Shown here piece by piece: positions 2,814-28,459 of a DNA stretch of 64,000 bases. Under the pieces are notes generated by a model. The model did no database searches and was not told where the DNA came from. It saw only the letters and a program-made list of their open reading frames with translations. The translations under genes were made by a program, and so were the position numbers. Every line of letters starts with the position of its first letter. The stretch's first letter is position 1. The stretch comes from Oscillospiraceae bacterium (GTDB lineage Bacteria > Bacillota > Clostridia > Oscillospirales > Oscillospiraceae): positions 86,391 to 150,390 of the forward strand of contig JAFRER010000016.1 of assembly GCA_017434755.1 (NCBI GenBank). The letters are read 5' to 3'.

Positions 2814-2816
2814 ACC

Positions 2817-3661: not shown

Positions 3662-4315
3662 TCATGCCCCATAGAATTCGAGAAAGCGTCTTGTCTCCTC
3701 CTTCGCGGGATTGGAGAGAATTTTTTCTGCAGGTCCCTGCTCCGTCAGCTTCCCGTTCCGCAGAAACAGGACATTGTCCGCGATCCTTTTTGCCTGCCGG
3801 ATGCTGTGGGTTATCAGGACCAAAGCGCAGCCGGTGCGGCTGCAACAGTCTCTGATCAGCTTCTCCGCGGCGAGAGTGGACTCCATGTCCATGCTTGCGG
3901 TCGGCTCGTCCAGGATCAGCAGATCATAGCTTCCCATGAGGATGCGGGCGAGAGCCATCTTGGCCGTCTCACCGCCGGAGAGCTTTTTCGCCTTGCGCTT
4001 TGCGACGGGATCCAGCTTCAAAGCGGCCATGAGCTCCCGCATCCGCTCCGTGTCGCTTCCGTTAAGGGCAATGTTCCGCTCCGTACTCATCCGGAAGGCA
4101 TAGCTTTTCTGGGGCAAATACCCGACAGCCGCTCCCGTGAGCGGACGGGATCTTCCGTCAGGCGCTTCGATGCCGGCAAGGACCTTTGCAAGGGTGGACT
4201 TGCCGCTGCCGTTTGCTCCTATGACGGCGGTGACCGTTCCTTCACACCATTCGAATGCCGGCATGTCGAGCACCGTGACGCCTGTGTAGCTTTTTTTGAA
4301 TGCGCTGCTTTTCAT
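3662..4315 (-). CDS. tupC: Tungstate ABC transporter ATP-binding protein
   Basis: Walker A GANGSGKST, signature LSGGE, Walker B LLILDEP. I place the start at ATG 4315, which overlaps the tupB stop (ATGA). The longer ORF to 4660 is an Arg/His-rich upstream extension. Confidence 0.85.
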   Translation of the reverse strand: MKSSAFKKSYTGVTVLDMPAFEWCEGTVTAVIGANGSGKSTLAKVLAGIEAPDGRSRPLTGAAVGYLPQKSYAFRMSTERNIALNGSDTERMRELMAALKLDPVAKRKAKKLSGGETAKMALARILMGSYDLLILDEPTASMDMESTLAAEKLIRDCCSRTGCALVLITHSIRQAKRIADNVLFLRNGKLTEQGPAEKILSNPAKEETRRFLEFYGA

Positions 4316-4998
4316 CGGCTGAGCCTCCTTTGCATAAGGCTGAGCACGATGTTCACCAGCAGCGAAAGCGTCAGCAATATGAGTCCGAGGGCGATGCCGA
4401 GGGTGAAATTGCCGCGGTTGGTGTACTGCATGATCGCGGTGGTCATCACATTGGTCTTCCAGGCGATGGCGCCGCCGACCATGGACACTGCTCCGACCTC
4501 TGCTATGGCGCGGGCAAAGGCAAGCAGATAGGACGAGAAGATGGGATAGACACATTCGTTCACCAGCAGGCCGAAGCGCTTCCACGGCCCGAATCCGAGC
4601 CCCTTCGCGGTCTCCCGCAGGGGAAGGGCAATGTCCGCTGTGAAGGTCTCCATGCTGCATGTTACGAGGGGCGTGATCAGCACCACCTGGGCGATGATCA
4701 TCAGCCGGACGGTGAACAGCAGCTGCAGGTGCCGGAAGGGCCCCACGCCCGAAAACAGCATATAGAACAGCAGACCGCAGACTACAGGCGGCATGCCCAT
4801 GAGCGTGCGGTTGAGCACTGTGAGCGCGTTCCTGCCCGGAAACCGGCGCGCGCCGAGAAGCATCCCCAGAGGGATGCCGATGAGCAGGGCTATGAGGGAA
4901 CTGGTGAGGCTCACCCGCGCGGTGGTCGCGAGGATGTTCAGCAGTTCCTTATCACCGGTGAGGATGAGCTCTATTGCTTTTCGGATAGAAGAACCCAT
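4312..4998 (-). CDS. tupB: Tungstate ABC transporter permease
   Basis: 228 aa, about 5 TM helices, MetI-like permease fold. Operon position lies between tupA and tupC. Confidence 0.85.
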   Translation of the reverse strand: MGSSIRKAIELILTGDKELLNILATTARVSLTSSLIALLIGIPLGMLLGARRFPGRNALTVLNRTLMGMPPVVCGLLFYMLFSGVGPFRHLQLLFTVRLMIIAQVVLITPLVTCSMETFTADIALPLRETAKGLGFGPWKRFGLLVNECVYPIFSSYLLAFARAIAEVGAVSMVGGAIAWKTNVMTTAIMQYTNRGNFTLGIALGLILLTLSLLVNIVLSLMQRRLSR

Positions 4999-5056
4999 AA
5001 CGGATGTCCTTTGCCGCGGCTCCGGAGGGATCCGGCAGCCGCCTGTTCAGTATCGG

Positions 5057-6058
5057 TCAGCCTATGACGCCGTCGCTGGCAACGAAGGTGAGGAAGGTGG
5101 CCTTGTCGGTAAGGATATAGGCGTGCATCTGCTCTGCCATGACAAGGCAGGCGCCCATGCCGGCATTGGCGGAGATGTACCAGTCGGTATAGTCCTTGAA
5201 GCTTTCGGCTTCTGCGGTGATGCCGAGCTCTTCGGGCCAAAGGCTGATCTCCTTGGTGTGGGTGCCGGAACCGTCGCCGCGGGAGATGAAGGGGAACTTG
5301 CCGTCAGCGATGGCCTCGAAGGCAGCCGGCACATCGGCCGCGTCCTTCACGCCCGCGGGGTCGTCGGAGGGGCCGCAGAGCACAAAGTAGTTGTACATCC
5401 AGTTGAGCCGTTCGGCCTCCATGCCGTCGAGCACATAAGAGAATCCGTCGGCGATGAAGGCCTCCTCCTGTTTTTTGGAGTGGACGAGGATCAGGTCGGC
5501 GTTGCCCATTTTGGCATTGGCGATGGACTTGCCGGTGCCGGCGGAGTAGACCTCCACCTCATAACCGTACTTCTCCTCAAAGACGGGGAGAAGATAGCCC
5601 AGAAGACCGGAGTCGTTCACGGAGGTGGTGGTGGAAAGACGGATCTTTCCGGTATCTTCCGTTGCCGCAGGGATCTCCGCGGTGGAGACGGGGCGCTCGT
5701 CTTTCAGATAGAACAGGTATTCGCCGTACTGTTCAAAGCCGTAGTTGGCGGCCAGCTCCTGACCTTCTTCGGAAAGCAGCCAGTTGATAAGCGCGGCGGC
5801 CCCGATGGCGTTTATCGCGACATCATCGACTGCGTTGCCGTCGGCATCGGCAAAAGGCGCCTCGGGGTTGACGGCAAGAAGGCTGTAGTTGTTGATCATG
5901 GCGTCATCCGCTTCCTTCAGAATGCAGGTGTCCACGACCAGCGCGTCCGACTTCGGAGCAGAGCCGCCGGTAGCAGCAAGCGGCGCTTCGGCCTTGCCGC
6001 AGGCGCAGAGGGCGAGGATCATGACAAGTGCCAGGAGAAGAGATAAGAACTTTTTCAT
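5057..6058 (-). CDS. tupA: Tungstate-binding lipoprotein, TupA family, apparently circularly permuted
   Basis: Lipobox LALCAC|G. TTTS motif at residues 143-146, then VNDSGLLGYLLPVFE...GTG...SRGDGSGTH. The usual C-terminal segment (..YSLLAVNPE...INWLLSEEGQ..) sits at residues about 55-118. Confidence 0.85.
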   Translation of the reverse strand: MKKFLSLLLALVMILALCACGKAEAPLAATGGSAPKSDALVVDTCILKEADDAMINNYSLLAVNPEAPFADADGNAVDDVAINAIGAAALINWLLSEEGQELAANYGFEQYGEYLFYLKDERPVSTAEIPAATEDTGKIRLSTTTSVNDSGLLGYLLPVFEEKYGYEVEVYSAGTGKSIANAKMGNADLILVHSKKQEEAFIADGFSYVLDGMEAERLNWMYNYFVLCGPSDDPAGVKDAADVPAAFEAIADGKFPFISRGDGSGTHTKEISLWPEELGITAEAESFKDYTDWYISANAGMGACLVMAEQMHAYILTDKATFLTFVASDGVIG

Positions 6059-6115: not shown

Positions 6116-8026
6116 TCAAAATACGTCGATCAGTTCGCCGGGGCGGTCGAGGGTATAGCCGCCCATGGCCTCGATGCGCTCACGGAACGCATCGCTTTTG
6201 AGGGTGCGCAGGAGCTGACGGACCAGGGAGCTGTTCCATACGGTCTCGGGGATGAGCAGATCGTATTCCTCGGTGCAGACGGGCAGAAAATCGAGCCCGT
6301 AGAGCTTTGCCGCGGAATAGATGCCCATGCCGGCGTCCGCGCTGTTTTCGGCGATCTGCACCGCCACGGCGTTGTGGGTGGTCTCCTCCCGGTCGTAGCC
6401 GTAGACGGATGCGGGATTCACGCCTTCCTTCCGGCAGAGATGATCGGCGAGAATCCGCGTGCCGGAACCCTTTTGCCGATTCACGTAGCGCACGCCCTCG
6501 CGGGCTATGTCCGCAAAACAGCGGATCCCTAGGGGATTGTCCTTCTGCAGCATAAGGCCCTGCAGTCTCCCGACGCAGCGCACGAGACGGACGCCGCCCT
6601 GCGGGAAGTATTTTTTTAGATAACTCCGGTTGTATTCGCCGGTCTCCGTGTCGAGCAGATGGATGCCCGCGGCGTGGGCCTCCCCGCGGCGGATCGCCAT
6701 GATCCCGCCCATGGAACCCACGTGGGAGGAGGAGAGGAAGATGCTCCTGTCCCCCCGATGGAGTAGGTCAGCAAGTTCGTCCAGAAGCGGATCGTGGCTG
6801 CCGATCACCACCAGCGTATTCTTCAGTTTTTTCTTCGAGCCCAGCAGTCTCACGCGCACTGCCTCACCCGCCGAGAAGCCCTCCATGTTCTGCGGGACTT
6901 CCAGGATCCCGTCGGCCTTCATGAAGGAGGACACGACCCCGCTGCCCCGCGGCAGGGGAGAGGCGACCAGTTTATCACCGACATATCCCATGCGTACCCG
7001 CACGAATTCCCTGTATTTCAGTCCGGAGACCACCGGCCTTGACAGGACGGCGGATGTGCGTGTTCCGGTGTCCGACTGTCTGCCGTACCATGCGTCCAGG
7101 AGCGGATACAGGAGCTCCTCTATGACGATCATGCCGGATACGGGATAGCCGGGCACACCGAGTATGGGCTTTTCGCCGCGGCAGCCCAGGATGGCGGGCT
7201 TGCCGGGTTTGATGGCGATGCCGTGGAAAAGGACCTCGCCGGTCTTTTTTACGGCTTCCGCCGAATAATCGTCCCGGCCCGCGGAGGATCCCGCGTTGAT
7301 GATCACCATGTCGCATTCGTCCGCGGCCTTTTCGAGCATTGCGCAGATCTCGTCGAAGCGGTCCGGCACGACGGGGTATGTTTTTGCCTCCGCGCCGTGG
7401 CCGGTGAGCATGGCGCGGAAGATGGAGGAGTTGAATTCCAGAATGTCGCCGGGCTTCGGATCGGCGCAGGGAGGAACGATCTCGTCGCCCGTGGGGATGA
7501 TCCCGACCAGCGGCCTGCGTATGACTTCCAGCTCCGTGACGCCGCCCGCTATGAGCGCGCCGATCGCCGCGGGAGTAACCTCCGTGAAGGAGGGCAGGAT
7601 CATCTCGCCGGCGCAGATATCCTCGCCGATCTGCCGTATGTGCTGCCACGGGGCTGCGGAGGTGTGGAGGGTCACAGCGCCGTCTTCGCTGAAAACGAGA
7701 TCCTCCGCCATGATGACGGCGTCGCAGCCGGCCGGAACGGGATCGCCGGTGTCCACCTGCGTGAAGCGGTCCGGCGGGAGCGTCACGGGGGTGGTCTCCG
7801 TGGCGCCGAAGCTGTCCCGCGCGGCGATGGCGATGCCGTCCATGGCGCTTGCGGCGTAATGCGGGGCGTTGCTTTTGGCATATACCGCGCGGGAGGTGAT
7901 CCTTCCGCAGGCGCCGCTGACCGGGACGGTCTCATTCTCTGCGGAAAAACCCTTTTCCAGCAGCTTTGTCAAATATTCCGCTCTGGCCTGTTCCAGAGGA
8001 ACGTTGGTAAGATAACTGAATCCCAT
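6116..8026 (-). CDS. moeA: Molybdopterin molybdo/tungsto-transferase MoeA fused to a C-terminal PBP-like (molybdate/tungstate-binding type) domain
   Basis: 636 aa. MoeA N/MoCF-binding/C domains span about residues 1-400 (SAMDGIA, INAGSSAGRDDY). The C-terminal region of about 230 aa (VIGSHDP...GSGTR...) resembles the cytoplasmic PBP-like domain found in ModE/TunR-like proteins. Confidence 0.85.
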   Translation of the reverse strand: MGFSYLTNVPLEQARAEYLTKLLEKGFSAENETVPVSGACGRITSRAVYAKSNAPHYAASAMDGIAIAARDSFGATETTPVTLPPDRFTQVDTGDPVPAGCDAVIMAEDLVFSEDGAVTLHTSAAPWQHIRQIGEDICAGEMILPSFTEVTPAAIGALIAGGVTELEVIRRPLVGIIPTGDEIVPPCADPKPGDILEFNSSIFRAMLTGHGAEAKTYPVVPDRFDEICAMLEKAADECDMVIINAGSSAGRDDYSAEAVKKTGEVLFHGIAIKPGKPAILGCRGEKPILGVPGYPVSGMIVIEELLYPLLDAWYGRQSDTGTRTSAVLSRPVVSGLKYREFVRVRMGYVGDKLVASPLPRGSGVVSSFMKADGILEVPQNMEGFSAGEAVRVRLLGSKKKLKNTLVVIGSHDPLLDELADLLHRGDRSIFLSSSHVGSMGGIMAIRRGEAHAAGIHLLDTETGEYNRSYLKKYFPQGGVRLVRCVGRLQGLMLQKDNPLGIRCFADIAREGVRYVNRQKGSGTRILADHLCRKEGVNPASVYGYDREETTHNAVAVQIAENSADAGMGIYSAAKLYGLDFLPVCTEEYDLLIPETVWNSSLVRQLLRTLKSDAFRERIEAMGGYTLDRPGELIDVF

Positions 8027-8029
8027 CTT

Positions 8030-9250
8030 TTACTCCCGATCGGGATAAACCTGCACGTCGGCGCCTTTCGGCAGACCTTCGCAGTCCCTGTCAATGATGA
8101 AATAGCCGTCAGAACCTGCTAGAAGCGTGATGAGGCCGGATTTGGAACGGACGGGTACAGCCGTCAGGATCCCGTCCCGGCGCTCAAGCCTGCAGGCAAC
8201 GACCTGCGCGCGCCCGTGGTTGGCGCTGACGCTCTCGCTGAGCTTTGCCGGCACAGGCAGCCGCTGCTGTTCGCAGCCGGAAAGCCTGTCCAGAAGCGGC
8301 AGCACGAAGAGCCGTGCCGCGAAGAGCGCGGCGACCGGATGGCCGGGCAGACCGATAAGAGGCTTGTTCCCGGCCTTTCCGAGGATCGTCGGCTTGCCGG
8401 GCTTTACGGCGATGCCGTGGAGCAGCAGCTCGCCCGCGTCCGCTATCACGCGGCAGGCGGCATCCTTTGCCCCGACACTGCTGCCTCCCGAGAGGATCAC
8501 CGCGTCGCATTCGTACAGCGCGTCGCGGAAGGTTTCACGCAGTGCCTGCTCATCGTCTTTCACGATCCCGTACGGCACGGGATCCGCTCCGGATCGGCTC
8601 AGCAGGGCGGCAAGCATCGTGCTGTTGACGTCCCGCATCTGACCGGGGGCGGGAACGGACTCCGGAGGGACGAGCTCGTCTCCGGTAGACAGCACGCCCA
8701 CCTTCAGCTTCCTGACCACGGGTACGGAGCTGCGCCCTATGGCGGCAAGAGCGCCGATGTCCTGCGCACGGAGGATCCGTCCGGCTTTCAGCACGGTCTT
8801 TCCGGGGATCAGGTCGTCCCCGCGGAAGATGATGTTCATTCCCGGAGCGCCGGCCTTCAGGATGCCGGCGGTGCCGTCCCCGAAATCCTCGGTGTATTCG
8901 AGCATCACGGCGCAGTCCGCGCCTTTGGGGATCGCGCCGCCCGTGGGCACACAGGCGCAGGAGCCTGGCTCCAGTTCCAGTCCGGACTCACGACCCATAA
9001 GGACTTCACCGGCGACGGTCAGCACGGCGGGGATGGACACGGAGCAGCCGAAGGTGTCAGCCGCGCGGCAGGCATAGCCGTCCACGGTGGAGCGGTCAAA
9101 ATCCGGAACGTATTCCGCTGAAACGATCTCCTCGGCCAGCACGCGTCCGGCGGCGGAGACGAGCGGGACATGCTCCGTCCGCCCGGTCAACGGGACAAAC
9201 TCCTTTTGTATAAGAGCCAGCACTTCCTCCGGCGTTTTTACCTGCAGCAT
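8030..9250 (-). CDS. moeA: Molybdopterin molybdotransferase MoeA
   Basis: 406 aa. Motifs STVDGYA, LSTGDELV, ILSGGSSVGAKD, GIAVKPGKP. Lies 3 nt upstream of the second MoeA gene. Confidence 0.9.
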   Translation of the reverse strand: MLQVKTPEEVLALIQKEFVPLTGRTEHVPLVSAAGRVLAEEIVSAEYVPDFDRSTVDGYACRAADTFGCSVSIPAVLTVAGEVLMGRESGLELEPGSCACVPTGGAIPKGADCAVMLEYTEDFGDGTAGILKAGAPGMNIIFRGDDLIPGKTVLKAGRILRAQDIGALAAIGRSSVPVVRKLKVGVLSTGDELVPPESVPAPGQMRDVNSTMLAALLSRSGADPVPYGIVKDDEQALRETFRDALYECDAVILSGGSSVGAKDAACRVIADAGELLLHGIAVKPGKPTILGKAGNKPLIGLPGHPVAALFAARLFVLPLLDRLSGCEQQRLPVPAKLSESVSANHGRAQVVACRLERRDGILTAVPVRSKSGLITLLAGSDGYFIIDRDCEGLPKGADVQVYPDRE

Positions 9251-9322
9251 GGCTATACCTCAAATGTGAAGATAAACCATTATAGCTTTTTCCCTCTCCG
9301 CTTACAAGAGAGGAGAATGCTA

Positions 9323-9352
9323 TTGACGGGCACCGAGGGGATTCAATATAAT
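9323..9352 (+). promoter_or_regulatory. SigA-type promoter for the moeB-like/G3E/radical-SAM operon
   Basis: TTGACG (9323-9328), 18-nt spacer, TATAAT (9347-9352). A GC hairpin GAGGGGAGGCG-TTTT-CGCCCCCTC follows in the short leader. Confidence 0.65.
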
Positions 9353-9403
9353 GACGCTGAAGAGGGGAGGCGTTTTCGCCCCCTCGGGGAAAGGATGTTT
9401 TGC

Positions 9404-10180
9404 ATGAACGGAAACGGATTGTCCGCGGAACAGAAAGAACGGTATTCCCGCCAGATCCGCATGCCGGAGATTGGGGAGGCGGGGCAGGCAAAGCTGCTCG
9501 CCTCGAAGGTCCTGATCATCGGCGCGGGCGGGCTCGGATCTCCCGCAGCGCTGTATCTCGCGGCGGCAGGTGTCGGCACGGTCGGCATCGCCGACGGGGA
9601 CAGAGTGGAGCTTTCGAATCTCCAGCGGCAGATCCTGCACGGCAGCTCCGACATAGGCAGAGCAAAGGCGGCGTCGGCCGCGGATGCGATGCAGAGGCTC
9701 GATCCGGAGCTGTATGCCGTTTCCTATGAGCTGACGGCGGACGAGGAGAATCTGCCCGATCTGCTGGCGGAGTATGATTTTGTGCTGGACTGCACCGACA
9801 GGCATGAGACGAAGCTGCTGATCAGCGATGCCTGCGTGAGGGCGGGCAAGCCCTTGTGCACGGGGAGCGTCGCCGGCTTTTACGGACAGGTGATGACCCG
9901 GGTGCCGGGAGACGGACCCTGCTACCGCTGTATATTCGGCAATGCACCGGCAGGCCCGGCGCTTGACGCAAAAGAGAACGGCGTTCTCGGGGCTGCAGCC
10001 GGGATCATCGGCTGCATCATGGCGGCCGAGGCGGTGAAATACCTGACAGGCGCGGGGGAACTGCTAACCGGGAGTCTGCTGACCTGCGACCTGTCGGAAA
10101 TGCGATTCGAAAAGATACCGATGAAGCGGGACAGGAACTGCCCCGCCTGCGGCAAAACCAATACGGAGGCGGAAGAGTGA
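9404..10180 (+). CDS. HesA/MoeB/ThiF-family E1-like adenylyltransferase (probable MoaD-activating MoeB, no rhodanese domain)
   Basis: Motifs RYSRQI..IG..GQ, IIGAGGLGSPAALYLAAAGVG, SNLQRQ, plus CYRC and CPAC zinc motifs. The start is ATG 9404 (RBS GAAAGGA 8 nt upstream) or ATG 9395. Confidence 0.85.
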   Translation: MNGNGLSAEQKERYSRQIRMPEIGEAGQAKLLASKVLIIGAGGLGSPAALYLAAAGVGTVGIADGDRVELSNLQRQILHGSSDIGRAKAASAADAMQRLDPELYAVSYELTADEENLPDLLAEYDFVLDCTDRHETKLLISDACVRAGKPLCTGSVAGFYGQVMTRVPGDGPCYRCIFGNAPAGPALDAKENGVLGAAAGIIGCIMAAEAVKYLTGAGELLTGSLLTCDLSEMRFEKIPMKRDRNCPACGKTNTEAEE

Positions 10181-11238
10181 AAAAGTTTGCGGTGATCAGC
10201 GGTTTTCTCGGCTCCGGGAAGACCACAACGATGATGGCTTTGACAAAGCATTATTCCGCTCATTTCGGCAAGGCGGCCATGATCTCCAACGATCTGGGCG
10301 AAGGCGTGCTGCTGGCAGACCACCGGTTGGCGCAGCTGGGAGGCTGCAGGGCGCTGCAGATCAGCGACGAGTGCATCTGCTTCTGCCACGACGTGCTCAC
10401 GGAAAAGCTCGAGGCCTGCTATTCCGAAGGCTGTGACCTCGTCGTTTCGGATATACCAGGCTTCGGCGTTGGCGCGCAGGAGCACGTTTATCACGGACTG
10501 ACCGAAAACTATCCGGGACAGTTCGAGCTTGCGCCTTTCACCGTTCTGATAGAGCCGCGGAACCTCCGCCTGCTCCGGGAAGGAAAAGCCGGAGACATGG
10601 GTACTATCCTCGACGCACAGCTGAAAGAGGCGGATCTCATCGTGCTGAGCAAGTGCGAGCTGTTGGTGGCGCAGGAACGGGAGGAAGGCCTGAAATGGCT
10701 TGCGGAGCTGTATCCCTGGACGGAGCAGATCGCCGTGAGCGCTGCCAGCGGAGAAGGACTTGACGCACTCTGTCTTGCCCTGCGCGACGGGAAGGCTTCG
10801 CTCCGTCATCCCAAAATAGACTATGACGCGGATGATCTGCAGGACGCCATGGGCAGTCTGAGCGAATACTATCTGCAGTACCGCGCGCTGGTCTGCTGCA
10901 ACGATTTTGACGGCAACGCCTATCTCACGGAGCTTGCGGAGAAGATCCGCGGGGCGGTGGGCGCGGCGGGACGGGAGATCCCGCATATGAAGCTGCTGGC
11001 ATGGGCTCCGGAGGGGGATTTCGGAAAGGCGGATATCCTGGGCACCGACCGCCCCGTTGAATTGCCGCACCGCTTCATACAGCCCTGCACGGATATCGCG
11101 GTGATATTGAACACGAGCGCCGCCTGCCCGGACGCCGCGCTCAACGCCATTATCGGAGAGGCGGTAAAGGAGGTCTCGGAAAAGTATCAGCTGGAACTGA
11201 CCATATTCAAAAAAGACCATTTCAGCCTGGGAGAGTAA
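10177..11238 (+). CDS. G3E/CobW-like P-loop NTPase with divergent motifs and a C-terminal domain of about 150 aa with unknown function
   Basis: Walker A GFLGSGKTT, CobW-like Cys motif ECICFCHD, Walker B-like DLVVSDIPG, and LSKCE in place of NKxD. The GTG start overlaps the upstream stop (GTGA). Confidence 0.75.
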   Translation: MKKFAVISGFLGSGKTTTMMALTKHYSAHFGKAAMISNDLGEGVLLADHRLAQLGGCRALQISDECICFCHDVLTEKLEACYSEGCDLVVSDIPGFGVGAQEHVYHGLTENYPGQFELAPFTVLIEPRNLRLLREGKAGDMGTILDAQLKEADLIVLSKCELLVAQEREEGLKWLAELYPWTEQIAVSAASGEGLDALCLALRDGKASLRHPKIDYDADDLQDAMGSLSEYYLQYRALVCCNDFDGNAYLTELAEKIRGAVGAAGREIPHMKLLAWAPEGDFGKADILGTDRPVELPHRFIQPCTDIAVILNTSAACPDAALNAIIGEAVKEVSEKYQLELTIFKKDHFSLGE

Positions 11239-11239
11239 G

Positions 11240-12520
11240 ATGGGGACTTTGATCCGCAAGACCCGCTCGGTTTGCCCCGTATGCCTGCAAAACATCCCGG
11301 CCGGCCTCTTTCGGGAGGACGGCGGGCGGATCGTCATGCGGAAAAGCTGTGCGGAACACGGGGAGTTCAGCGTACCCGTATGGCAAGGGAAGCTTGATTT
11401 CGACACATGGCTCCTGAAAACTCCGCCGCTGCCGGAGAACAAAGGCCTGCGCTGCCCCGGAAACTGCGGCATCTGCCCGGAGCATGAGATCGGCAGCTGC
11501 TGCGTTCTGCTGGAGGTGACGAGACGCTGCGATCTGCGCTGCCGCTACTGCTTTGCCCGGGGAGGGGAGAGCGAAGAGGAGCCGTCGCTCGATGAGCTGA
11601 AAGAGGCGGTAAGGGATATCGTGCGGCAGTGCGGTGACCCTCTGCTGCAGCTTTCCGGCGGCGAACCTACCCGGCGGGACGATCTCGACGAGCTGGTACG
11701 CTTTGTGAAGGAGGCCGGCTGCAGCTATGTCCAGCTGAACACCAACGGCATCCGCCTCGCAAGGGAGTCGGATTACGCAAAAAGACTGGCGGACGCGGGG
11801 CTCGACATCGTCTTCCTCCAGTTCGACGGCACACGCGATGAGATCTATGAAGCGCTGAGAGGCAGACCTCTGCTCGATGTGAAAAAGACGGCCATCCAGG
11901 TATGCGGCGATCTCCGGATCGGCGTGACCCTCGTGCCCACGGTGGTGAGGGGAGTCAACGACGATGATCTAGGCGCCCTCATACGCTTTGCCTGTGAAAT
12001 GTCGCCCGCCGTGCGGGGGATCCACTTCCAGCCGGTTTCCTATTTCGGACGCTATCCGGGAAAGCCGGGGGATCAGGACCGCTATACGCTGGATGAGCTC
12101 ATGGCGGATATCAGCGAACAGGCGGAGATCCCGATCACGAGCTTCATGCCCTCGCGCTGCGACCATCCGATCTGCGGCTTCCATGCGAACTATCTCATCG
12201 AACCCGATGGCCTGCGGCCATTGAGCAGCATCAGCCATTCCTCTCCGAGCCGAGGCTGCGAACGGGACAACCGGGAATATGTGGCGAGGCACTGGATGCG
12301 CTCGCCCGAGGAGCCGAAGCCCGCATCGGTATTCGACGGGGAGATGGACTTCGACACCTTCCTCTACCGTCTGCGCCACGAAAGCCTGACGCTGTCCGCC
12401 ATGGCCTTCCAGGACGCGATGAACCTGAACATAGAGCGGCTGCACCGCTGCAGCCTGCACGTTTTTGACGGGGGAACCGTGAAACCCTTCTGCGCGAAGT
12501 ATCTCACCCCATTCGAATAA
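11240..12520 (+). CDS. Radical SAM enzyme of the MJ0619/Tes-like architecture (N-terminal Zn ribbon plus two Cx3Cx2C motifs)
   Basis: CPVC...CAEHG N-terminal ribbon. CPGNCGICPEH, then the canonical RRCDLRCRYCF radical SAM motif. GGEP SAM-binding motif. Starts 1 nt after the previous stop. Confidence 0.85.
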   Translation: MGTLIRKTRSVCPVCLQNIPAGLFREDGGRIVMRKSCAEHGEFSVPVWQGKLDFDTWLLKTPPLPENKGLRCPGNCGICPEHEIGSCCVLLEVTRRCDLRCRYCFARGGESEEEPSLDELKEAVRDIVRQCGDPLLQLSGGEPTRRDDLDELVRFVKEAGCSYVQLNTNGIRLARESDYAKRLADAGLDIVFLQFDGTRDEIYEALRGRPLLDVKKTAIQVCGDLRIGVTLVPTVVRGVNDDDLGALIRFACEMSPAVRGIHFQPVSYFGRYPGKPGDQDRYTLDELMADISEQAEIPITSFMPSRCDHPICGFHANYLIEPDGLRPLSSISHSSPSRGCERDNREYVARHWMRSPEEPKPASVFDGEMDFDTFLYRLRHESLTLSAMAFQDAMNLNIERLHRCSLHVFDGGTVKPFCAKYLTPFE

Positions 12521-12540
12521 AACTGAAAAAGGCAAAAAAA

Positions 12541-12571
12541 GGCCGCCGGATCCTGAACGGCGGCCCTTTTT
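12541..12571 (+). terminator. Rho-independent terminator (A/T flanks, possibly bidirectional)
   Basis: Stem GGCCGCCG (12541-12548) / CGGCGGCC (12558-12565). Preceded by A7 and followed by CTTTTT. Confidence 0.8.
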
Positions 12572-12582
12572 GCTGTTTACAA

Positions 12583-12676: not shown

Positions 12677-13705
12677 ATGAAGCTGATGAAGACCGAAGAC
12701 GCTGTCGGGCATGTGCTCTGCCACGATATAACCCAGATCATCAAGGATGAAAAGAAAGGGCCCGTGTTCCGCAAGGGCCATATCATCCGCCCCGAGGACG
12801 TGCCCGTGCTGCTGAGCGTGGGCAAGGACAACATCTATATCTGGGAAAACAACGAGAATATGCTCCACGAGGATGAGGCGGCGGAGATCCTGCGGGATAT
12901 CTGCATCAACGAGCATATGCATGCCACGGAGCCGAAAGAGGGAAAAATAGAGCTCATAGCCGACACGGACGGCCTGCTGCTGATCGACGTGGAGAGACTC
13001 CGCGCCGTAAACTCCCTTCCGGAGATGATGATCGCCACACGCGCATCCGGCTTCGTAGTGAGAGAGGGCGACAAGCTCTGCGGAACGCGCGTGATCCCCC
13101 TGATCATAGAGAAAGAAAAGATGGAGCGCGCGAAGAAAGCGGCGGGCAGCGAGCCGCTGCTGAAGCTCGTGCCTCTGAAGAGCAAGAAAGTCGGCGTGGT
13201 GACAACGGGCAACGAAGTCTTCTACGGCCGCATCCAGGATACCTTCACGCCGGTCATCGAGCAGAAGCTGAGTGAGTTCGGCGGCTGCGTGATGACCGAG
13301 CATGTCACGCTCAATGACGACCACGAGAAAATCACCGCCGCCGTTCTCGATATGCTGGACAAGGGCTGCGAGATGGTGCTGTGCAGCGGAGGCATGAGCG
13401 TGGACCCGGATGACAAGACGCCTCTGGCGATAAAGAACACCGGCGCGAATATCGTTTCCTACGGCTCGCCCGTGCTTCCGGGAGCGATGTTCCTCGTATC
13501 GTACATGCCGGATGGACGCCCCGTGTGCGGGCTGCCCGGATGTGTCATGTACGCCAAACGCACGATCTTCGACCTGCTCCTGCCCTATCTCGTTACGGAC
13601 ACGCCGATCACGAAAGAACATCTCGCCGCGCTCGGCCACGGCGGACTGTGCCTCAACTGCACGGTCTGCCACTTCCCAAACTGCGGCTTCGGAAAAGGGA
13701 CCTGA
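12677..13705 (+). CDS. MoeA-like molybdopterin-binding (MoCF_BD) protein with a C-terminal Cys cluster
   Basis: 342 aa. MoCF-binding core VGVVTTGNEV...CSGGMSVDPDD. The C-terminal tail is CLNCTVCHFPNC (CxxCxxCx4C). Confidence 0.8.
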   Translation: MKLMKTEDAVGHVLCHDITQIIKDEKKGPVFRKGHIIRPEDVPVLLSVGKDNIYIWENNENMLHEDEAAEILRDICINEHMHATEPKEGKIELIADTDGLLLIDVERLRAVNSLPEMMIATRASGFVVREGDKLCGTRVIPLIIEKEKMERAKKAAGSEPLLKLVPLKSKKVGVVTTGNEVFYGRIQDTFTPVIEQKLSEFGGCVMTEHVTLNDDHEKITAAVLDMLDKGCEMVLCSGGMSVDPDDKTPLAIKNTGANIVSYGSPVLPGAMFLVSYMPDGRPVCGLPGCVMYAKRTIFDLLLPYLVTDTPITKEHLAALGHGGLCLNCTVCHFPNCGFGKGT

Positions 13706-13750
13706 TCAAACCCATAAACATTCGCACAATTCCATATCGCTTTGTTTCTT

Positions 13751-13790
13751 CCGTGTATGAACACGTAAAGCCGTGTTTATATAAATATCT
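13751..13790. promoter_or_regulatory. Candidate Mo-responsive operator/promoter region upstream of modA
   Basis: Inverted repeat CGTGT-ATGA-ACACG (13752-13765). CCGTGT is repeated 20 nt later (13771). Perfect AT palindrome TTTATATAAA (13776-13785). Confidence 0.35.
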
Positions 13791-13822
13791 TCCCTGAAAT
13801 ATGGGAAAAGGAGACTGAAGAA

Positions 13823-14722
13823 ATGAAAAAAATCCTCGCACTGCTGCTGGCACTGACCATGGTGTTTACGCTGGCAGCCTGCGGCCAATCGGCCGCACCC
13901 GTTCAGCAGGAAACAACGCAGGACACGCCGGCGGAACAGCCCGCCGAAGTTCCCGCTCCCGCTGAAGAGCCCGCTCCCGTTGAAGAGATCGAGCTCATCG
14001 TATTTGCAGCCGCATCCATGACAGAGACGATGACCCAGATCAAAGATCTCTATGAGGCGGCAAACCCCGGCGTGACCATCACCTACAACTTTGACTCCTC
14101 CGGAACGCTCAAGACCCAGATCCAGGAAAGCGCGGACTGCGACCTGTTCATCTCCGCCGCTCCCAAGCAGATGAACCAGCTCGATATCTCTTGTGACGAA
14201 GAGAAGAACCCCGACAGGCTCGATTTCGTTCTGCAGGGTAGCCGAATTAACCTGCTGGAGAATAAGGTGGCGCTTGTAGTCCCTGATGGCAACCCAAAGG
14301 GTGTCGAGTCCTTTGATGGACTTGTGGAGCTGCTCAAAGCCAAAGATGTGCTTTTTGCCATGGGCAACAGCGACGTCCCCGTGGGTCAGTATACCCAGAA
14401 GATCCTCGCCTATTATGAGCTGAGCGAAGATGATCTTGTCAAGGCAAAGCTCATCACCTACGGAACCAACGTCAAAGAAGTCACCACACAGGTAAAGGAA
14501 GCCAGCGTTGACTGCGGCGTGGTCTATGCCACCGACGCCTTCTCCGCCGGTCTCACCATCGTGGATACCGCGACCAAGGACATGTGCGGACAGGTCATCT
14601 ATCCCGCCGCTGTCCTGAACGTCAGCAAGCATCCCGAAGCGGCTCAGGCTTTCCTCGATTACCTGACCGGTCCTGAGGCAACTGCCGTGTTTGAAGCAGT
14701 CGGCTTTTCCCCTGCAGCCTGA
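13823..14722 (+). CDS. modA: Molybdate ABC transporter substrate-binding lipoprotein
   Basis: Lipobox LTLAAC|G. Motifs VFAAASMTE and FDSSGTL are typical of ModA. Followed by modB and modC. Confidence 0.9.
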   Translation: MKKILALLLALTMVFTLAACGQSAAPVQQETTQDTPAEQPAEVPAPAEEPAPVEEIELIVFAAASMTETMTQIKDLYEAANPGVTITYNFDSSGTLKTQIQESADCDLFISAAPKQMNQLDISCDEEKNPDRLDFVLQGSRINLLENKVALVVPDGNPKGVESFDGLVELLKAKDVLFAMGNSDVPVGQYTQKILAYYELSEDDLVKAKLITYGTNVKEVTTQVKEASVDCGVVYATDAFSAGLTIVDTATKDMCGQVIYPAAVLNVSKHPEAAQAFLDYLTGPEATAVFEAVGFSPAA

Positions 14723-14736
14723 ACGTATTGAATAAC

Positions 14737-14760
14737 AGGCGGCGCATAACAGCGCCGCCT
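14737..14760 (+). other. Intra-operon GC hairpin between modA and modB (possible attenuator or mRNA stabiliser)
   Basis: Stem AGGCGGCGC / GCGCCGCCT with a 6-nt loop and no T tract. Confidence 0.4.
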
Positions 14761-14782
14761 GCCGTCCTTTGGAGTGTAAGCT

Positions 14783-15457
14783 ATGAGTTTTGACTGGTAT
14801 CCTCTGTGGAACTCGCTGCGGATCGCCGCGATCAGCTGTGTGCTCGTGTTTTTCCTCGGGATCTTTTTCGCCTACTATGCGGCAAAGCTTCCCCGCTGGC
14901 TCAAGGGCATACTGGACGTTTTCCTTACGCTGCCGATGGTCCTTCCGCCCACGGTCTGCGGCTATTTTCTGCTGATCATCTTCGGAGTGAAGCGCCCAGT
15001 CGGTGCTTTCCTGGCGCAGTACGGGATCAAATTCGTCATGACCTGGTACGGCGGGATCCTGGCCGCTGCCGTGGTGGCCTTCCCGCTGATGTACAGGACA
15101 GCCCGCGGCGCCTTCGAGAGCTTCGACAAGACGCTTGCCTATTCCGGGCAGACGCTGGGCCTGAGCAACACCTATATCTTCTGGCGTGTCCGCATGCCCG
15201 CCTGCCGGCAGGGCATCCTCGCGGGAACGGTGCTGGCCTTTGCCCGCGCCCTCGGCGAATACGGCGCCACGAGCATGCTCATCGGCTATACGCCCGGCAA
15301 AACTGCCACCATTTCTACAACGGTCTACCAGCTGTGGCGCACGAACGATGAAAAAGGCGCCATGTTCTGGGTGCTGGTCAATCTTGCCATCAGCGCCGTG
15401 GTGCTGCTGAGCGTCAACATGCTGGAGGCCCGGCAGAAAAAGGCGGTGAAGCCATGA
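14783..15457 (+). CDS. modB: Molybdate ABC transporter permease
   Basis: 224 aa, 5 TM helices, with the EAA-like loop ARALGEYGAT. Confidence 0.9.
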   Translation: MSFDWYPLWNSLRIAAISCVLVFFLGIFFAYYAAKLPRWLKGILDVFLTLPMVLPPTVCGYFLLIIFGVKRPVGAFLAQYGIKFVMTWYGGILAAAVVAFPLMYRTARGAFESFDKTLAYSGQTLGLSNTYIFWRVRMPACRQGILAGTVLAFARALGEYGATSMLIGYTPGKTATISTTVYQLWRTNDEKGAMFWVLVNLAISAVVLLSVNMLEARQKKAVKP

Positions 15458-16497
15458 GCCTGCATGTCGATATACGCAAACGGCTCGGCAGCTTCACGCT
15501 GGATGTGACCTTTACCGCGGAAAACGGGATCACATCCCTTCTCGGCGCGTCCGGCTGCGGAAAGAGCATGACACTGAAGTGCATCGCCGGAATCGAACGG
15601 CCGGATGAGGGGACCATCGAACTCGACGGAAGATTGCTGTTCGATTCGAAGAAGGGCATAAATCTGCCTCCCCAGCAGCGCCGTGTCGGTTATTTATTCC
15701 AGAATTATGCGCTCTTCCCCAATATGACGGTCCGTCAGAACATCCTCTGCGGGCTGAACCGCGAAAAGGACAGGGCGGTGAAGGAGCAGCGTCTTCGCGA
15801 CATACTGCAGATGATGCAGCTGGAAGGGCTGGAACAGAGAAAGCCCGCCCAGCTTTCCGGCGGCCAGCAGCAGCGTGTGGCCCTCGCACGCATCCTTGTG
15901 AATGACCCTCAGCTTTTGCTTCTGGACGAACCTTTTTCGGCTCTCGACGGACATCTGCGGGATTCCCTGAAGGTGGAAATGCGCGATCTGCTGGAAAACT
16001 TCGGCCGCGAGGTGCTGATGGTGACGCACGACAGGAACGAAGCTTATAACATGAGCCGCGCTATAGCCGTAATGGACCGCGGACGCATCCTGACCCTGAA
16101 GCCGACCAAGGCGCTCTTTGCCGATCCGGGGAGCGTGCAGGCAGCGATCATCACCGGATGCAAGAATATCGCCAAGGCGAGAAAGCTGGACGATCACCTC
16201 ATCGAGGTGCCCGAATGGGGCATCAGGCTCGAGACGAAACAGAGCGTGAAAGAAGGATTGTGTGCCGTCGGCCTGCGGGCGCATTACTTCAGCCCCACGT
16301 CACAGCACAACCGATTTCCGGTGCTTTTTGCGGAGGAGATGGAGGAGCCTTTCGAGACCATCATCCAGTTTCGCTACGAAGGACAGAGACCGGACAGCCC
16401 GCCCGTATGGTGGCGGCTGACCAAAGAAAAAAAGCCGGCGCAGTTTCCCGCAGAACTCGGGATCTCACCGGCAAACATCCTGTTACTTTATGAATGA
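15454..16497 (+). CDS. modC: Molybdate ABC transporter ATP-binding protein with a C-terminal TOBE-like region
   Basis: Motifs [37 protein letters not shown] overlap with modB. Confidence 0.9.
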
Positions 16498-16794: not shown

Positions 16795-17826
16795 TCAGCC
16801 CTCGCAGGCGTCCTCGACGAGCACTTTCATCAGCCCGCCGCAAACCATGCCGTCCGATTCGGCCACCTCGCCGGTAAGGTCGATGTCCACGATCTTGTAG
16901 CGCCCGGTGCCGATGATCCGTACCGCGTCCTGGATGACGGCCGCCTCGCTGCAGCCGCCGCCGATGCTGCCCGTGACCTTGCCGAGAGGGCTCACGGCCA
17001 TCTTGGCGCCTGTGCCGCGGGGCGTGGAGCCCTTGGTTTCGATGACGGTGACGATGGCCTTGGGATCATGATTCTCCGCGAAGTAATGCAGAGTGCTCAG
17101 CTCCACGTCGGAATCGTTGCAGTAACGGCCCGGGTCGCCGTGCTCGGGAAGGCGCTTGTAGGCGATGACCTCGGAGAGGATGGAGACGGCGATCTCTCCC
17201 GGCGTGACGGCGCCGATGTTAAGTCCTATGGGGGTGCAGATCTTCGCAAGACGGTCGGGATCAAAACCCTCGTCTTTCAGCATCTGAAGGAGACCCGTTG
17301 TGCGTCTTCTCGATCCGATCATGCCAAGGTAGGCAGGCATAGTGCCGGGAAGGAGGACACGCAGACAGTCGGCGTCGTGCCGGTGGCCGCGGGTGATCAC
17401 TACCACATAATCGAAGGGCGTGACGGCGAGCTTCGTTATGCCGTTTTCAAAGCTGTCGCATATCACCTCGGCGGCCTCGGGGAAGCGGGCGCGGTTTGCA
17501 AAATCCGGCCTGTCGTCCACCACGCAGACGGTGAAGCCGCAGGCGGCTCCGAAGGAGCAGACGGGCAGGGCTATATGACCCGCACCGAGAACGATCAACC
17601 GCTCCTGCGGCAAAACGGGTTCCCGGACACAAAGGCCATCCTCCGTTTTCTCCGCAGTCACGCGGGCGAAGCTCCTGCCCTTCGCGTCCGTGACGGGCGT
17701 GACGCCTGTGAGCTGCCTTATGAGTCCGCCTTTTACCTCGCCGGATTCGCCCTTTATGACCGTTTCAAGGGACACGGCTTTGTTTTCGGCCAGTTTATTG
17801 AGTATTTCCTTATAAATGTTCTCCAT
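16795..17826 (-). CDS. XdhC/CoxI-family Moco insertion/sulfuration accessory protein (atypical domain order)
   Basis: Rossmann-like LIVLGAGHIALPV...VVDDRP in the middle. Cys-containing XdhC_CoxI-type domain (TVIETKGSTPRGTGAKM...GSIGGGCSE...) at the C-terminus. I place the start at ATG 17826 (MENIYKE). Confidence 0.8.
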   Translation of the reverse strand: MENIYKEILNKLAENKAVSLETVIKGESGEVKGGLIRQLTGVTPVTDAKGRSFARVTAEKTEDGLCVREPVLPQERLIVLGAGHIALPVCSFGAACGFTVCVVDDRPDFANRARFPEAAEVICDSFENGITKLAVTPFDYVVVITRGHRHDADCLRVLLPGTMPAYLGMIGSRRRTTGLLQMLKDEGFDPDRLAKICTPIGLNIGAVTPGEIAVSILSEVIAYKRLPEHGDPGRYCNDSDVELSTLHYFAENHDPKAIVTVIETKGSTPRGTGAKMAVSPLGKVTGSIGGGCSEAAVIQDAVRIIGTGRYKIVDIDLTGEVAESDGMVCGGLMKVLVEDACEG

Positions 17827-17837
17827 ATCGGTGACCT

Positions 17838-18884
17838 CTATTCTATTACGGTTTTTCCCAGGATCCTGTTGATTTTTTCCTTTATCTGCAGCGCTGTCTC
17901 CAGCCGGCATGCGTGGGCTTCCATCGCCTCCCGCGTCAGGCAGCGCGATGCGCTGCCCGCAAACCGCTCCTCGATCGTGACGCGCCGTTCCCCTTCGAAG
18001 CATTTATCCGCCAGGAAGACGATGGCGGCTTCGTCCAGCTGTGTGCCTTCAAGGTCATGGTGCCGGCGGATGATCTCGGCGACGGCAGGGTAACCCAGTT
18101 CGAGAAGCCACTCTGCTCCGGCTTCGGGATGGTGTTTCCGTGCCCGCGCAATGTCGTGGATGAGAGCGGAGCTTCTGACAAGCGGGGTACTGAGCTGCAA
18201 ACCCGCCCCCGTCAGCATGCCGCAAAGTCCGGATGCAAGATCCGCCACGGCTCTGCAATGTGCTTTGAGAGCATCATCCGCGTCTGCCGCGCTCATCATG
18301 GCGTCACACACCTCATCCCGAAGTCCGGGATGGGGCTGCCTTCCGATCTCCGTGACCTTCAGCCCGTTTACGCCGTACTCCGCAACGGAAACACTGGCCC
18401 ATCCGAGCATCTCACGGCAGCCCGTGACGGTGGAGATGCTGCTCTTGTGGGCGACGACGGCAATGTCTCCATCACTTTCAGCAAGGCAGCGGGCGACCGC
18501 TTCCCGGAATCTTTCAGCCATGTGTTCCAGCGTCTCAGCACCTTCCGGGAGGGTATAGGGATCATGCTCCCTTATTGCATAGAGTTCCGGCCAGCCGGTC
18601 CTGATCTCGGTGAAGGAGAGCCCGTCCCAGACACCCATATCCTGTTCCTCAAGGCCCGGGATCGTCACCGGGGAGGACGAAATGGCAAGAGCCGTTTCCC
18701 GGCTGCGGCTCAGACTGCTGCAGAAAACGGCGTTCAGGCCCTTCAGATCCGGTTCAAAACGAAGGAGAGAAGCCTGTATCTTCCCGTATGACCCGAGCGG
18801 AATGTCGGTTCTGCTGCCGACACACCATCTTTCTCCGAAAGGAATGTCCGGTCTGGCATGACGGATAAAGAAAACCCTGCGCAT
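17838..18884 (-). CDS. Fusion protein: histidine phosphatase (CobC/PGM-like) N-domain plus HD-domain phosphohydrolase C-domain
   Basis: N-terminal RHARPD...VVAHKSS (catalytic His motifs). C-terminal ...LIHDIAR...HH... (HD motif). The start codon shares 1 nt with the upstream stop (TGATG). Confidence 0.8.
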   Translation of the reverse strand: MRRVFFIRHARPDIPFGERWCVGSRTDIPLGSYGKIQASLLRFEPDLKGLNAVFCSSLSRSRETALAISSSPVTIPGLEEQDMGVWDGLSFTEIRTGWPELYAIREHDPYTLPEGAETLEHMAERFREAVARCLAESDGDIAVVAHKSSISTVTGCREMLGWASVSVAEYGVNGLKVTEIGRQPHPGLRDEVCDAMMSAADADDALKAHCRAVADLASGLCGMLTGAGLQLSTPLVRSSALIHDIARARKHHPEAGAEWLLELGYPAVAEIIRRHHDLEGTQLDEAAIVFLADKCFEGERRVTIEERFAGSASRCLTREAMEAHACRLETALQIKEKINRILGKTVIE

Positions 18885-20565: not shown

Positions 20566-20716
20566 GTTTTCACCTCATTTTTACGTTTCATTTAACAGAT
20601 ATCGTATTTTATACAGTATAACCGATTGTTTTTTATTTGTAAATCGACGGAGCCTGTTTTTTCGTGCATCCGGGAGCGGTTCGTGGTATGATGACGGAAA
20701 GAGAGGCGGGGTGGAT

Positions 20717-24943: not shown

Positions 24944-24974
24944 GGGGATGCGGTTTTCCGCATCCCCGGTTTTT
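24944..24974 (+). terminator. Intrinsic terminator/attenuator immediately after mop
   Basis: Stem GGGGATGCGG / CCGCATCCCC with a TTTT loop, followed by GGTTTTT. A TATAAT-like hexamer lies just upstream (24938-24943). Confidence 0.6.
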
Positions 24975-25002
24975 GATTTTCGGATCATACAGGAGTGAGG
25001 CC

Positions 25003-28024: not shown

Positions 28025-28028
28025 TACC

Positions 28029-28454: not shown

Positions 28455-28459
28455 GTGAT

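Follow-up and report, generated by a model that had tools for sequence, protein, structure and literature searches.

A 64,000-nucleotide stretch of DNA from an Oscillospiraceae bacterium (positions 86,391 to 150,390 of contig JAFRER010000016.1, assembly GCA_017434755.1; the whole stretch is called the window here) raises the question of whether three translationally coupled genes form one biochemical pathway. The genes encode a MoeB/ThiF-type E1 adenylyltransferase (open reading frame (ORF) A), a divergent G3E P-loop NTPase (ORF B) and a radical S-adenosylmethionine (SAM) enzyme (ORF C), and they are located in an island of molybdenum cofactor (Moco) genes. The original prediction treated them as a trio serving a single candidate pathway, with a pterin-directed radical SAM enzyme. 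We find instead that two unrelated pieces have been joined in the operon. ORF B and ORF C are a conserved, translationally coupled pair, in which ORF C is, by its sequence, a TrsS-family enzyme; ORF A is, judging from related loci, a recent, lineage-specific addition to the operon.

The three ORFs are on the + strand and have open translations of 258, 353 and 426 amino acids. The GTG start codon of ORF B (10177-10179) overlaps the TGA stop codon of ORF A (10178-10180), forming a GTGA overlap at 10177-10180. The TAA of ORF B (11236-11238) is separated from the ATG of ORF C at 11240 by the single base g11239, a 1-nt gap. Purine runs resembling Shine-Dalgarno sequences can be read before all three starts. 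The candidate promoter at 9323-9352 matches the consensus at 11 of 12 positions, and consensus match is its only basis. The predicted terminator hairpin at 12531-12574 comprises a GC-rich core extended by A/U-tract pairs; its folding energy is -25.8 kcal/mol (z = -4.46), and none of 200 shuffled sequences folds equally well. The same hairpin is detected on the - strand. At gathering thresholds, an Rfam scan of the whole window reveals no Moco or other riboswitch and no other RNA family. The gene layout, the candidate promoter and strong terminator, and the MoeB/ThiF, CobW-like and radical SAM domain calls are thus as first described. The coupling of A, B and C is real, but the conserved pair consists of B and C only.

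ORF C matches the model NF045646, "radical SAM (seleno)protein TrsS", with 494.9 bits against a cut-off of 490, over model positions 2-433 of 441. Pfam finds Zn_ribbon_HMPTM (PF23545) and Radical_SAM (PF04055). The tetraether synthase (Tes) model NF045702 gives 297.6 bits, below its cut-off of 450, and MoaA models give about 80 bits against cut-offs of 231-325. By sequence, the closest solved relative is GDGT-MAS, the MJ0619 protein (PDB 7TOL, 1.1e-71). An AlphaFold2 model of ORF C (mean predicted local distance difference test score (pLDDT) 77) matches 7TOL with E = 7e-34 and a query TM-score (TMq) of 0.77, whereas the match to MoaA has 1e-11 and 0.49. These scores rule out a MoaA-like enzyme (GTP 3',8-cyclase) and a SPASM maturase. 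The MJ0619/Tes-like architecture proposed for ORF C therefore stands in that GDGT-MAS is its nearest solved relative, but the protein belongs to neither the Tes nor the MoaA families. Its family is already named by NCBIfam, which also models the neighbouring genes as NF045663-NF045669. A review of prokaryotic selenoproteins credits the TrsS family to Haft and Tolstoy (2025, mSystems 10:e0141724; cited in PMC13188914).

An alignment of 84 TrsS sequences from 80 species shows how the metal sites are conserved. The rubredoxin-like site (C12/C15/C37/H40) and the N-terminal Cys3His cluster (C72/C76/C79/H82) are kept in 82-83 of the 84 sequences. The CX3CX2C motif of the SAM cluster (C97/C101/C104) is invariant, as is the C-terminal cluster region (C312/M388/C404/C418), in which M388 aligns with the labile Met439 of GDGT-MAS. 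In contrast, Tyr459 of GDGT-MAS aligns with V408 of ORF C; this position is Val in 62 of the 84 proteins and Tyr in none. TrsS is further separated from Tes by an extra Cys, C307 in ORF C, which lies five residues before C312. Across the alignment, position 307 is Cys in 60 proteins, Ala in 16, Gly in 3 and selenocysteine (Sec) in 1. The last case comes from an uncultured Desulfobacterium (locus L071, 9980-11350; L numbers are our labels for loci), whose gene has an in-frame TGA that presumably encodes Sec (FRPPG-U-ENALCSFHG). Because this codon aligns with C307, we regard position 307 as the selenocysteine position.

ORF C therefore shares with GDGT-MAS and Tes (7TOL/7TOM) the rubredoxin-like C-X2-C...C-X2-H motif, the N-terminal Cys3His [4Fe-4S] site, CX3CX2C, the Met439 equivalent and the fold. 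It differs from them in being bacterial, in its genomic context of Mo enzymes and Hdr-like proteins, in having Val for Tyr459 and the additional Cys/Sec307, and in length. At 426 residues, it is shorter than the TrsS family median of 458, and about 80 residues shorter than GDGT-MAS (a 526-residue chain with an apparent 20-residue tag). It is best described as a TrsS-family protein in which all four metal sites of GDGT-MAS are kept and the conserved catalytic-site Tyr is lost.

The expectation of a pterin substrate rested on MJ0619. However, the methylation of a pterin that had been proposed for MJ0619 was not reproducible (Lloyd et al. 2022, PMC9433317). The protein is instead GDGT-MAS, which joins lipid tails by Csp3-Csp3 coupling through a cluster-sulfur-carbon intermediate; its structure shows a hydrophobic tunnel for lipids and is incompatible with a pterin substrate (PMC9433317). 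Because the pterin-methylase role was withdrawn in 2022, homology to MJ0619 gives ORF C no pterin link. The C7/C9 pterin C-methylase originally associated with MJ0619 (HMPTM) can likewise be rejected for ORF C, since the founding activity was not reproduced and the structure excludes a pterin (PMC9433317); only the name of the Pfam zinc ribbon remains.

A scan with the TrsS alignment, taking one genome per species, gave 80 loci spanning Clostridia, Negativicutes, Desulfobacterota, Synergistota, Bacteroidales, Chloroflexota, Alphaproteobacteria and one Methanomethylophilaceae archaeon. Partner genes were detected by phmmer using proteins from the window and from the Clostridium tyrobutyricum locus (L026). 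The dominant layout begins with genes for a MoCF_biosynth protein, an aldehyde oxidoreductase (AOR) of the MOP type, a dicluster/pyridine-nucleotide oxidoreductase, a methyltransferase, a C_GCAxxG_C_C protein and TrsS, and continues with an AMP-dependent ligase, XdhC, a nucleoside triphosphate (NTP) transferase/HD protein and a histidine phosphatase. The AMP ligase and the dicluster protein are each present in 61/80 species loci, MOP in 50/80, the C_GCAxxG_C_C protein and the methyltransferase in 47/80 each, and XdhC in 38/80. G3E genes are found in 12/80, and ThiF in 1/80, as a weak match 3 kb downstream (L010). In C. tyrobutyricum, TrsS and seven neighbours score above the cut-offs of NF045646 and NF045663-NF045669, the neighbour models being named after DVU_1551-DVU_1556 (Desulfovibrio vulgaris); no NCBIfam model passes its cut-off for the MoCF_biosynth protein or histidine phosphatase of this locus.

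Co-occurrence was analyzed in the 50 TrsS loci of at least 19 kb, of which 35 are MOP-positive and 15 MOP-negative. The MOP-type AOR lies within 10 kb of TrsS in these 35 of 50 loci, which bears out the view that the radical SAM gene is noncanonical and tied to Mo-enzyme genes elsewhere. The AMP ligase and dicluster protein are both present in 35/35 MOP-positive loci and in 9/15 MOP-negative loci. XdhC is found in 30/35 MOP-positive versus 1/15 MOP-negative loci, and the NTP transferase in 27/35 versus 1/15. By these counts, the core module consists of TrsS together with the AMP ligase and the Hdr-like (dicluster) oxidoreductase; XdhC, the NTP transferase and the phosphatase belong with the AOR as its accessories. 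For example, a Dehalococcoidia locus (L052) contains two tandem TrsS genes with HdrA-like, MvhD, HdrD-like, methyltransferase, AMP ligase and major facilitator superfamily transporter genes, and no Mo enzyme in its 21 kb. The tandem TrsS paralogues (about 8570-11350) occur in both L052 and L053 (Dehalococcoidia/Chloroflexota), with an FrhB-like gene as well and no Mo enzyme within 21 kb.

Gene fusions provide independent, Rosetta-stone support for the TrsS partners. Among 150 representatives of TrsS clusters at 50% identity, TrsS is fused to the AMP ligase in 6, to a DVU_1556-type methyltransferase in 6, to DUF5714 in 3, and to a MocA-like NTP transferase in 3, one of which also has an HD domain. 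TrsS is thus a component of a widespread neighbourhood built around the MOP-type molybdenum AOR. Literature searches on DUF5714, DVU_155x locus tags and the mop cluster returned nothing useful.

The other member of the conserved pair, ORF B, has a cobW match in Pfam (PF02492; residues 5-172, the N-terminal half only; 3.2e-14, 53.3 bits against a cut-off of 20.7) and no CobW_C match. No NCBIfam model comes near its cut-off. Because a PDB sequence search with ORF B also gave no match, we searched by fold. The AlphaFold2 model (pLDDT 93.7) most resembles YjiA over its full length (8e-12), followed by HypB, UreG and MeaB, though the full-length alignment to YjiA has a root-mean-square deviation of about 20 Angstrom, which limits comparison of the C-terminal domain. 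Walker A (G9-T17), ECICFC (65-70), SDIPGFG (91-97) and SKCE (158-161) can be recognized. Relatives of ORF B conserve Walker A, ISNDLG, E-C-I-C-F-C, SDIPGFG and (N/S)KC(D/E); the last occupies the position of the guanine-specificity motif NKxD, reads SKCE in ORF B and is NKCD in the largest group of relatives. The protein shares with COG0523/YjiA/CobW proteins the two-domain P-loop G3E fold, Walker A and a Cys-rich motif after switch I. It differs in having about 15% identity to them, CxCxC rather than CxCC, and four invariant Cys residues in the C-terminal domain (C240, C241, C304 and C317).

A metagenome scan with an alignment of ORF B gave 80 G3E loci. TrsS directly follows the G3E gene in 40 of them, the distance between the called ORFs ranging from -19 to +6 nt, and therefore the coupling of B to C exceeds chance. 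TrsS is elsewhere in the locus in 11 cases, and in 5 there is no room downstream. In the species loci, the two genes occur in both orders, with and without the AMP ligase. Replacement of the AMP ligase by ORF B was considered and rejected, as the window and several other loci carry both. ORF B is a frequent but non-obligatory TrsS partner, and is seen only in Bacillota.

Taken together, these observations lead us to favour, tentatively, a module in which TrsS performs a radical coupling on a non-pterin substrate shared with the methyltransferase and AMP ligase, redox-linked to the AOR, with the G3E protein as a loader. TrsS would use 5'-deoxyadenosyl radical chemistry, its C-terminal [4Fe-4S] cluster and Cys/Sec307 to form a C-C or C-S/Se bond. 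The substrate could be a small acyl or thiol compound, or perhaps the adjacent C_GCAxxG_C_C protein, and the partner methyltransferase and AMP ligase would act on it as well. The pathway may be redox-coupled to the AOR and the Hdr-like dicluster oxidoreductase. The most economical role for ORF B would be that of an NTP-driven loader of metal or clusters for TrsS, a client with four metal sites. A pterin substrate is disfavoured because MJ0619 has been reassigned (PMC9433317) and the TrsS core occurs without a Mo enzyme (L052 and 9/15 MOP-negative loci).

Several points weigh against the module just described. ORF C clears the NF045646 cut-off by only 5 bits, which is marginal (the C. tyrobutyricum TrsS scores 685). 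Our literature search found no experiment on any TrsS, and secondary sources give only the family name; the substrate is pure inference. In 24 of the 80 metagenome G3E loci, which form a group at 59-68% identity, there is room and yet no TrsS within up to 6 kb, so the G3E protein need not be dedicated to TrsS. Finally, the MocA-like NTP transferase fusion and the constant company of XdhC, MoCF_biosynth and ModABC genes in this lineage fit a Moco role equally well.

Such a role, the main rival and the original prediction stripped of the E1, is possible but rather doubtful. It would have TrsS and G3E, together with XdhC and the MocA-like NTP transferase, modify or complete molybdopterin cytosine dinucleotide (MCD) or the S/Se ligands of Mo in MOP-type AORs. 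Besides the frequent proximity of MOP and the three NTP transferase fusions, it would account for the MoCF_biosynth protein and ModABC that follow G3E-TrsS in this lineage, with XdhC flanking, and several families of the neighbourhood are selenoproteins (with Sec in L071), which suits S/Se ligand chemistry. However, XdhC and the NTP transferase track MOP rather than TrsS, and the core module occurs without MOP, XdhC or the NTP transferase in 9/15 MOP-negative loci, and in L052 it is accompanied by a transporter and Hdr/Mvh-like genes; a strict cofactor-maturation role is weakened accordingly. Native Desulfovibrio gigas MOP crystal structures reportedly contain ordinary MCD, which also counts against this role. 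The closest characterized homologue works on lipid tails in a hydrophobic tunnel and not on pterins (PMC9433317). A more specific version is unlikely, and somewhat more so: G3E-TrsS, the methyltransferase, the AMP ligase, the DUF5714/MbdU-like protein and the MocA-like NTP transferase might install a novel modification of MCD or of the Mo coordination sphere in MOP-type AORs, TrsS acting by cluster-sulfur or Cys/Sec307 radical coupling and G3E delivering metal.

We consider it improbable that ORF B is only a neighbour of TrsS, whether as a general metal-homeostasis GTPase of the COG0523 type or as a helper of the AOR or the DUF5714/MbdU-like protein. The 24 loci that lack TrsS are in keeping with such independence, for two of them were checked and have unrelated neighbours, and no G3E-TrsS fusion is present among the fusions surveyed. 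Nevertheless, the ORFs overlap or nearly touch in 40 loci and occur in both orders in the species loci, and the only lineages in which the G3E family is seen are Bacillota that carry TrsS islands as well.

ORF A has a different history. It matches ThiF in Pfam (PF00899; 2.5e-78, 262.9 bits), and its best NCBIfam matches are MoeB/UbaA models; PRK05690 gives 248.4 against a cut-off of 266, and other MoeB, ThiF and UbaA models are further below theirs. It has two CxxC pairs, C173/C176 and C246/C249. A ThiF gene stands before G3E-TrsS in the closest relatives only, at 94-95% identity (GCA_016648615.1, L087). In relatives at 77-85% identity it is absent beside the pair, which is preceded by a phosphatase gene (L081), by a small ORF next to MOP (L082), or directly by 2-oxoacid:ferredoxin oxidoreductase (POR) genes (L084). 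Compared with L084, the block comprising an ATP-binding cassette (ABC) transporter, a MoeA fused to a periplasmic binding protein (MoeA-PBP), MoeA and ThiF has been inserted after the POR genes and before the gene for G3E.

The nearest homologues of ORF A (65% and 58% identity) sit in a tungsten-AOR cassette. On one side, this cassette has divergently oriented genes for MoeA-PBP, MoeA and a helix-turn-helix (HTH)-PBP protein; on the other side are a tungsten-type aldehyde ferredoxin oxidoreductase (AFOR), a 73-amino-acid ThiS/MoaD-like protein ending in GGG, ThiF and a radical SAM-SPASM protein resembling TIGR04317. The ThiS-like gene is directly upstream of the ThiF homologues at 58-65% identity. 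This cassette recurs in Oscillospiraceae-type contigs (L167-L170) with the HTH_17-PBP regulator; the radical SAM-SPASM gene is found in L167 and L168, and the L169 and L170 contigs end after ThiF. The window has the same divergent layout, with ORF A 65% identical to the cassette ThiF and its MoeA 70% identical to the cassette MoeA. In contrast to the cassette, it lacks the AFOR, the MoaD/ThiS-like gene, the HTH-PBP regulator and the radical SAM-SPASM gene, and G3E-TrsS lies downstream of ThiF. A cassette of the L167-L170 type is likely to be the source of the ThiF and MoeA block of the window.

As was noted originally, no MoaD/ThiS-like carrier ending in GG is found in the window. The entire 64 kb contains only two ORFs ending in GG, both out-of-frame artefacts inside known genes, and tblastn of the window with the L167 ThiS-like protein found no carrier. 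An in-frame stretch upstream of ORF A was considered as a ThiS remnant and rejected. The reading of ORF A that fits best is thus a MoeB-type enzyme with its origin in a pterin-cofactor cassette; it would serve a carrier encoded elsewhere and would not be a partner of TrsS. Its predicted role is adenylation of MoaD for ordinary molybdopterin synthesis.

It is consequently very improbable that E1, G3E and radical SAM proteins carry out a single three-step pathway, for example with E1-activated sulfur transfer, radical insertion into a pterin and a dedicated metallochaperone. The three genes are coupled between one promoter and one terminator, and ThiF followed by a gene resembling the radical SAM/SPASM "tungsten cofactor oxidoreductase maturase" recurs in the tungsten cassette, so that E1 and radical SAM pairs do exist. 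However, only G3E and TrsS recur together; ThiF adjoins them in the closest relatives and in no more distant locus, the window offers no carrier protein, and the ThiF and MoeA block looks inserted. The lack of conservation already largely refutes the pathway. The idea that TrsS is a bacterial Tes-type synthase of membrane-spanning lipids in coincidental genomic company is just as hard to credit, since, despite the kinship with GDGT-MAS in sequence and fold, the four metallocentres and labile Met that are kept, and the bacterial GDGT-MAS homologues of unknown role mentioned by Lloyd et al. (PMC9433317), ORF C misses the Tes cut-off, has Val for a Tyr that no TrsS retains, is shorter, and belongs to a conserved non-lipid neighbourhood with fusions to the AMP ligase, methyltransferase and NTP transferase.

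With the E1 placed outside the system and the pterin link from homology removed, a misleading lead is gone, and the locus is chiefly interesting as a well-defined experimental target. Among known radical SAM reactions, that of the archaeal tetraether-lipid enzyme is one of the most unusual, and TrsS is a close relative of this enzyme in bacteria. TrsS is conserved beside a molybdenum AOR in anaerobes of many phyla, including the abundant Oscillospiraceae of gut and rumen. Its core module can now be separated from the AOR-maturation genes, the fusions name its pathway partners, and the Cys/Sec residue and the lost catalytic Tyr are located. The G3E NTPase, for which we found no specific curated family model in NCBIfam, is a likely helper of TrsS.

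The window thus holds a catalogued TrsS system in a rearranged form, with a G3E partner. Around the trio, the window contains a Moco island, as originally described, with two MoeA genes (one a PBP fusion), two ABC transporters, a MoCF_biosynth protein, XdhC and a MocA-like gene (Table 1). Every component of the canonical TrsS neighbourhood is present at 16.8-29.7 kb; the AMP ligase, dicluster oxidoreductase, methyltransferase, C_GCAxxG_C_C protein and MOP-type AOR are 10-17 kb away from TrsS instead of adjacent. A peptide deformylase gene near 29.7 kb marks the end of the island. Between the C_GCAxxG_C_C gene and the ligase, where TrsS is normally found, it is missing; it lies about 10 kb upstream, behind ORF B.

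Table 1. Positions of the features discussed, in window coordinates
Feature	Position	Strand	Remarks
Two-gene POR	1065-3389	+	Next to G3E-TrsS, on its upstream side, in L084
Tup/Mod-like ABC transporter	3662-6058	-	Divergent block; PBP_like_2 (Tup/phosphate-like), by MoeA-PBP
MoeA-PBP fusion	6116-8026	-	Divergent block
MoeA	8030-9250	-	Divergent block
Promoter-like site, sigma-70-like, TTGACG-18-TATAAT	9323-9352	+	In front of ORF A; consensus match only
ORF A, MoeB/ThiF-type E1 adenylyltransferase	9404-10180	+	258 aa; ThiF PF00899
ORF B, divergent G3E (COG0523/YjiA-like) P-loop NTPase	10177-11238	+	353 aa; GTG start
ORF C, TrsS-family radical SAM enzyme	11240-12520	+	426 aa; NF045646
Intrinsic terminator hairpin ending in U-run	12531-12574	+	Closes operon
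MoCF_biosynth-domain protein (342 aa), then ModABC	12677-16497	+	Block 3' of G3E-TrsS in many relatives; ModABC-like transporter at 13823-16497
Circularly permuted XdhC-like	16795-18003	-	AOR accessory
His-phosphatase + HD	17838-18884	-	AOR accessory
DVU_1551-type NTP transferase + ModE-type HTH	18884-19807	-	AOR accessory
DUF5714, partial similarity to selenoprotein MbdU	19804-20565	-	AOR accessory
TylF-like methyltransferase	20495-21664	+	Recurs in related loci
Conserved ORF of about 85 aa	21830-22084	+	Directly upstream of MOP
MOP-type AOR	22155-24911	+	NF045668, 1498 bits
Dicluster/pyridine-nucleotide oxidoreductase	24973-27291	+	NF045663, 788 bits
Methyltransferase	27512-28024	+	phmmer with L026 proteins; Pfam
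C_GCAxxG_C_C protein	28008-28454	+	phmmer with L026 proteins; Pfam
AMP-dependent ligase	28418-29671	+	phmmer with L026 proteins; Pfam
668-aa fusion protein	33746-35752	+	Outside island

Relative to the TrsS family as modelled by NF045646, ORF C has the domain architecture and ligands of the 83 other members, and the window has the same partner genes. The differences are Cys rather than Sec at position 307, the location away from the usual slot, and the coupling to a G3E NTPase and, in this lineage, also to ThiF. Similarly, the AOR neighbourhood of the DVU_1551-DVU_1559 type (NF045663-NF045669) can be recognized by the AOR and dicluster scores in Table 1, by XdhC_rel_AOR (268 bits) and by the DVU_1551 NTP transferase (204 bits). 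However, its gene order is interrupted, with three blocks distributed over both strands, and DUF5714/MbdU-like, TylF-like and G3E genes are added. In canonical loci the NTP transferase and HD domain form one protein, whereas in the window they are split, the transferase being joined to a ModE-type HTH and the HD domain to a CobC-like histidine phosphatase. The ModE-type HTH suggests molybdate-responsive regulation.

The XdhC-like protein of the window is permuted relative to XdhC_rel_AOR of C. tyrobutyricum. Its residues 106-284 correspond to residues 170-345 of that protein (the Rossmann domain), and residues 316-397 correspond to residues 19-100 (XdhC_CoxI). The same Pfam order is found in the relatives L082, L084 and L086. 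The N-terminus of the 402-amino-acid ORF is probably about 60 residues too long, as the relatives have 340-343 residues.

The conserved ORF of about 85 amino acids upstream of MOP is 71-76% identical in L081 and L082 and has no Pfam match. It ends in ...DHDRCGGHSH, and was considered as a hidden MoaD-type carrier; this idea was dropped, as L081 does not keep the GG. The two oxyanion transporters, one of them Tup/phosphate-like and the other ModABC-like, may provide separate uptake of tungstate and molybdate. The POR genes of the window encode a 582-amino-acid protein (POR_N, TPP_enzyme_C and two Fer4 domains) and a 190-amino-acid POR protein, an indolepyruvate-type layout, and this pair may be a source of AOR-linked aryl or acyl substrates. 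Downstream of the island, the 668-amino-acid protein joins metallo-beta-lactamase/ODP, flavin reductase and rubredoxin-like domains, and resembles flavodiiron-type O2/NO reductases.

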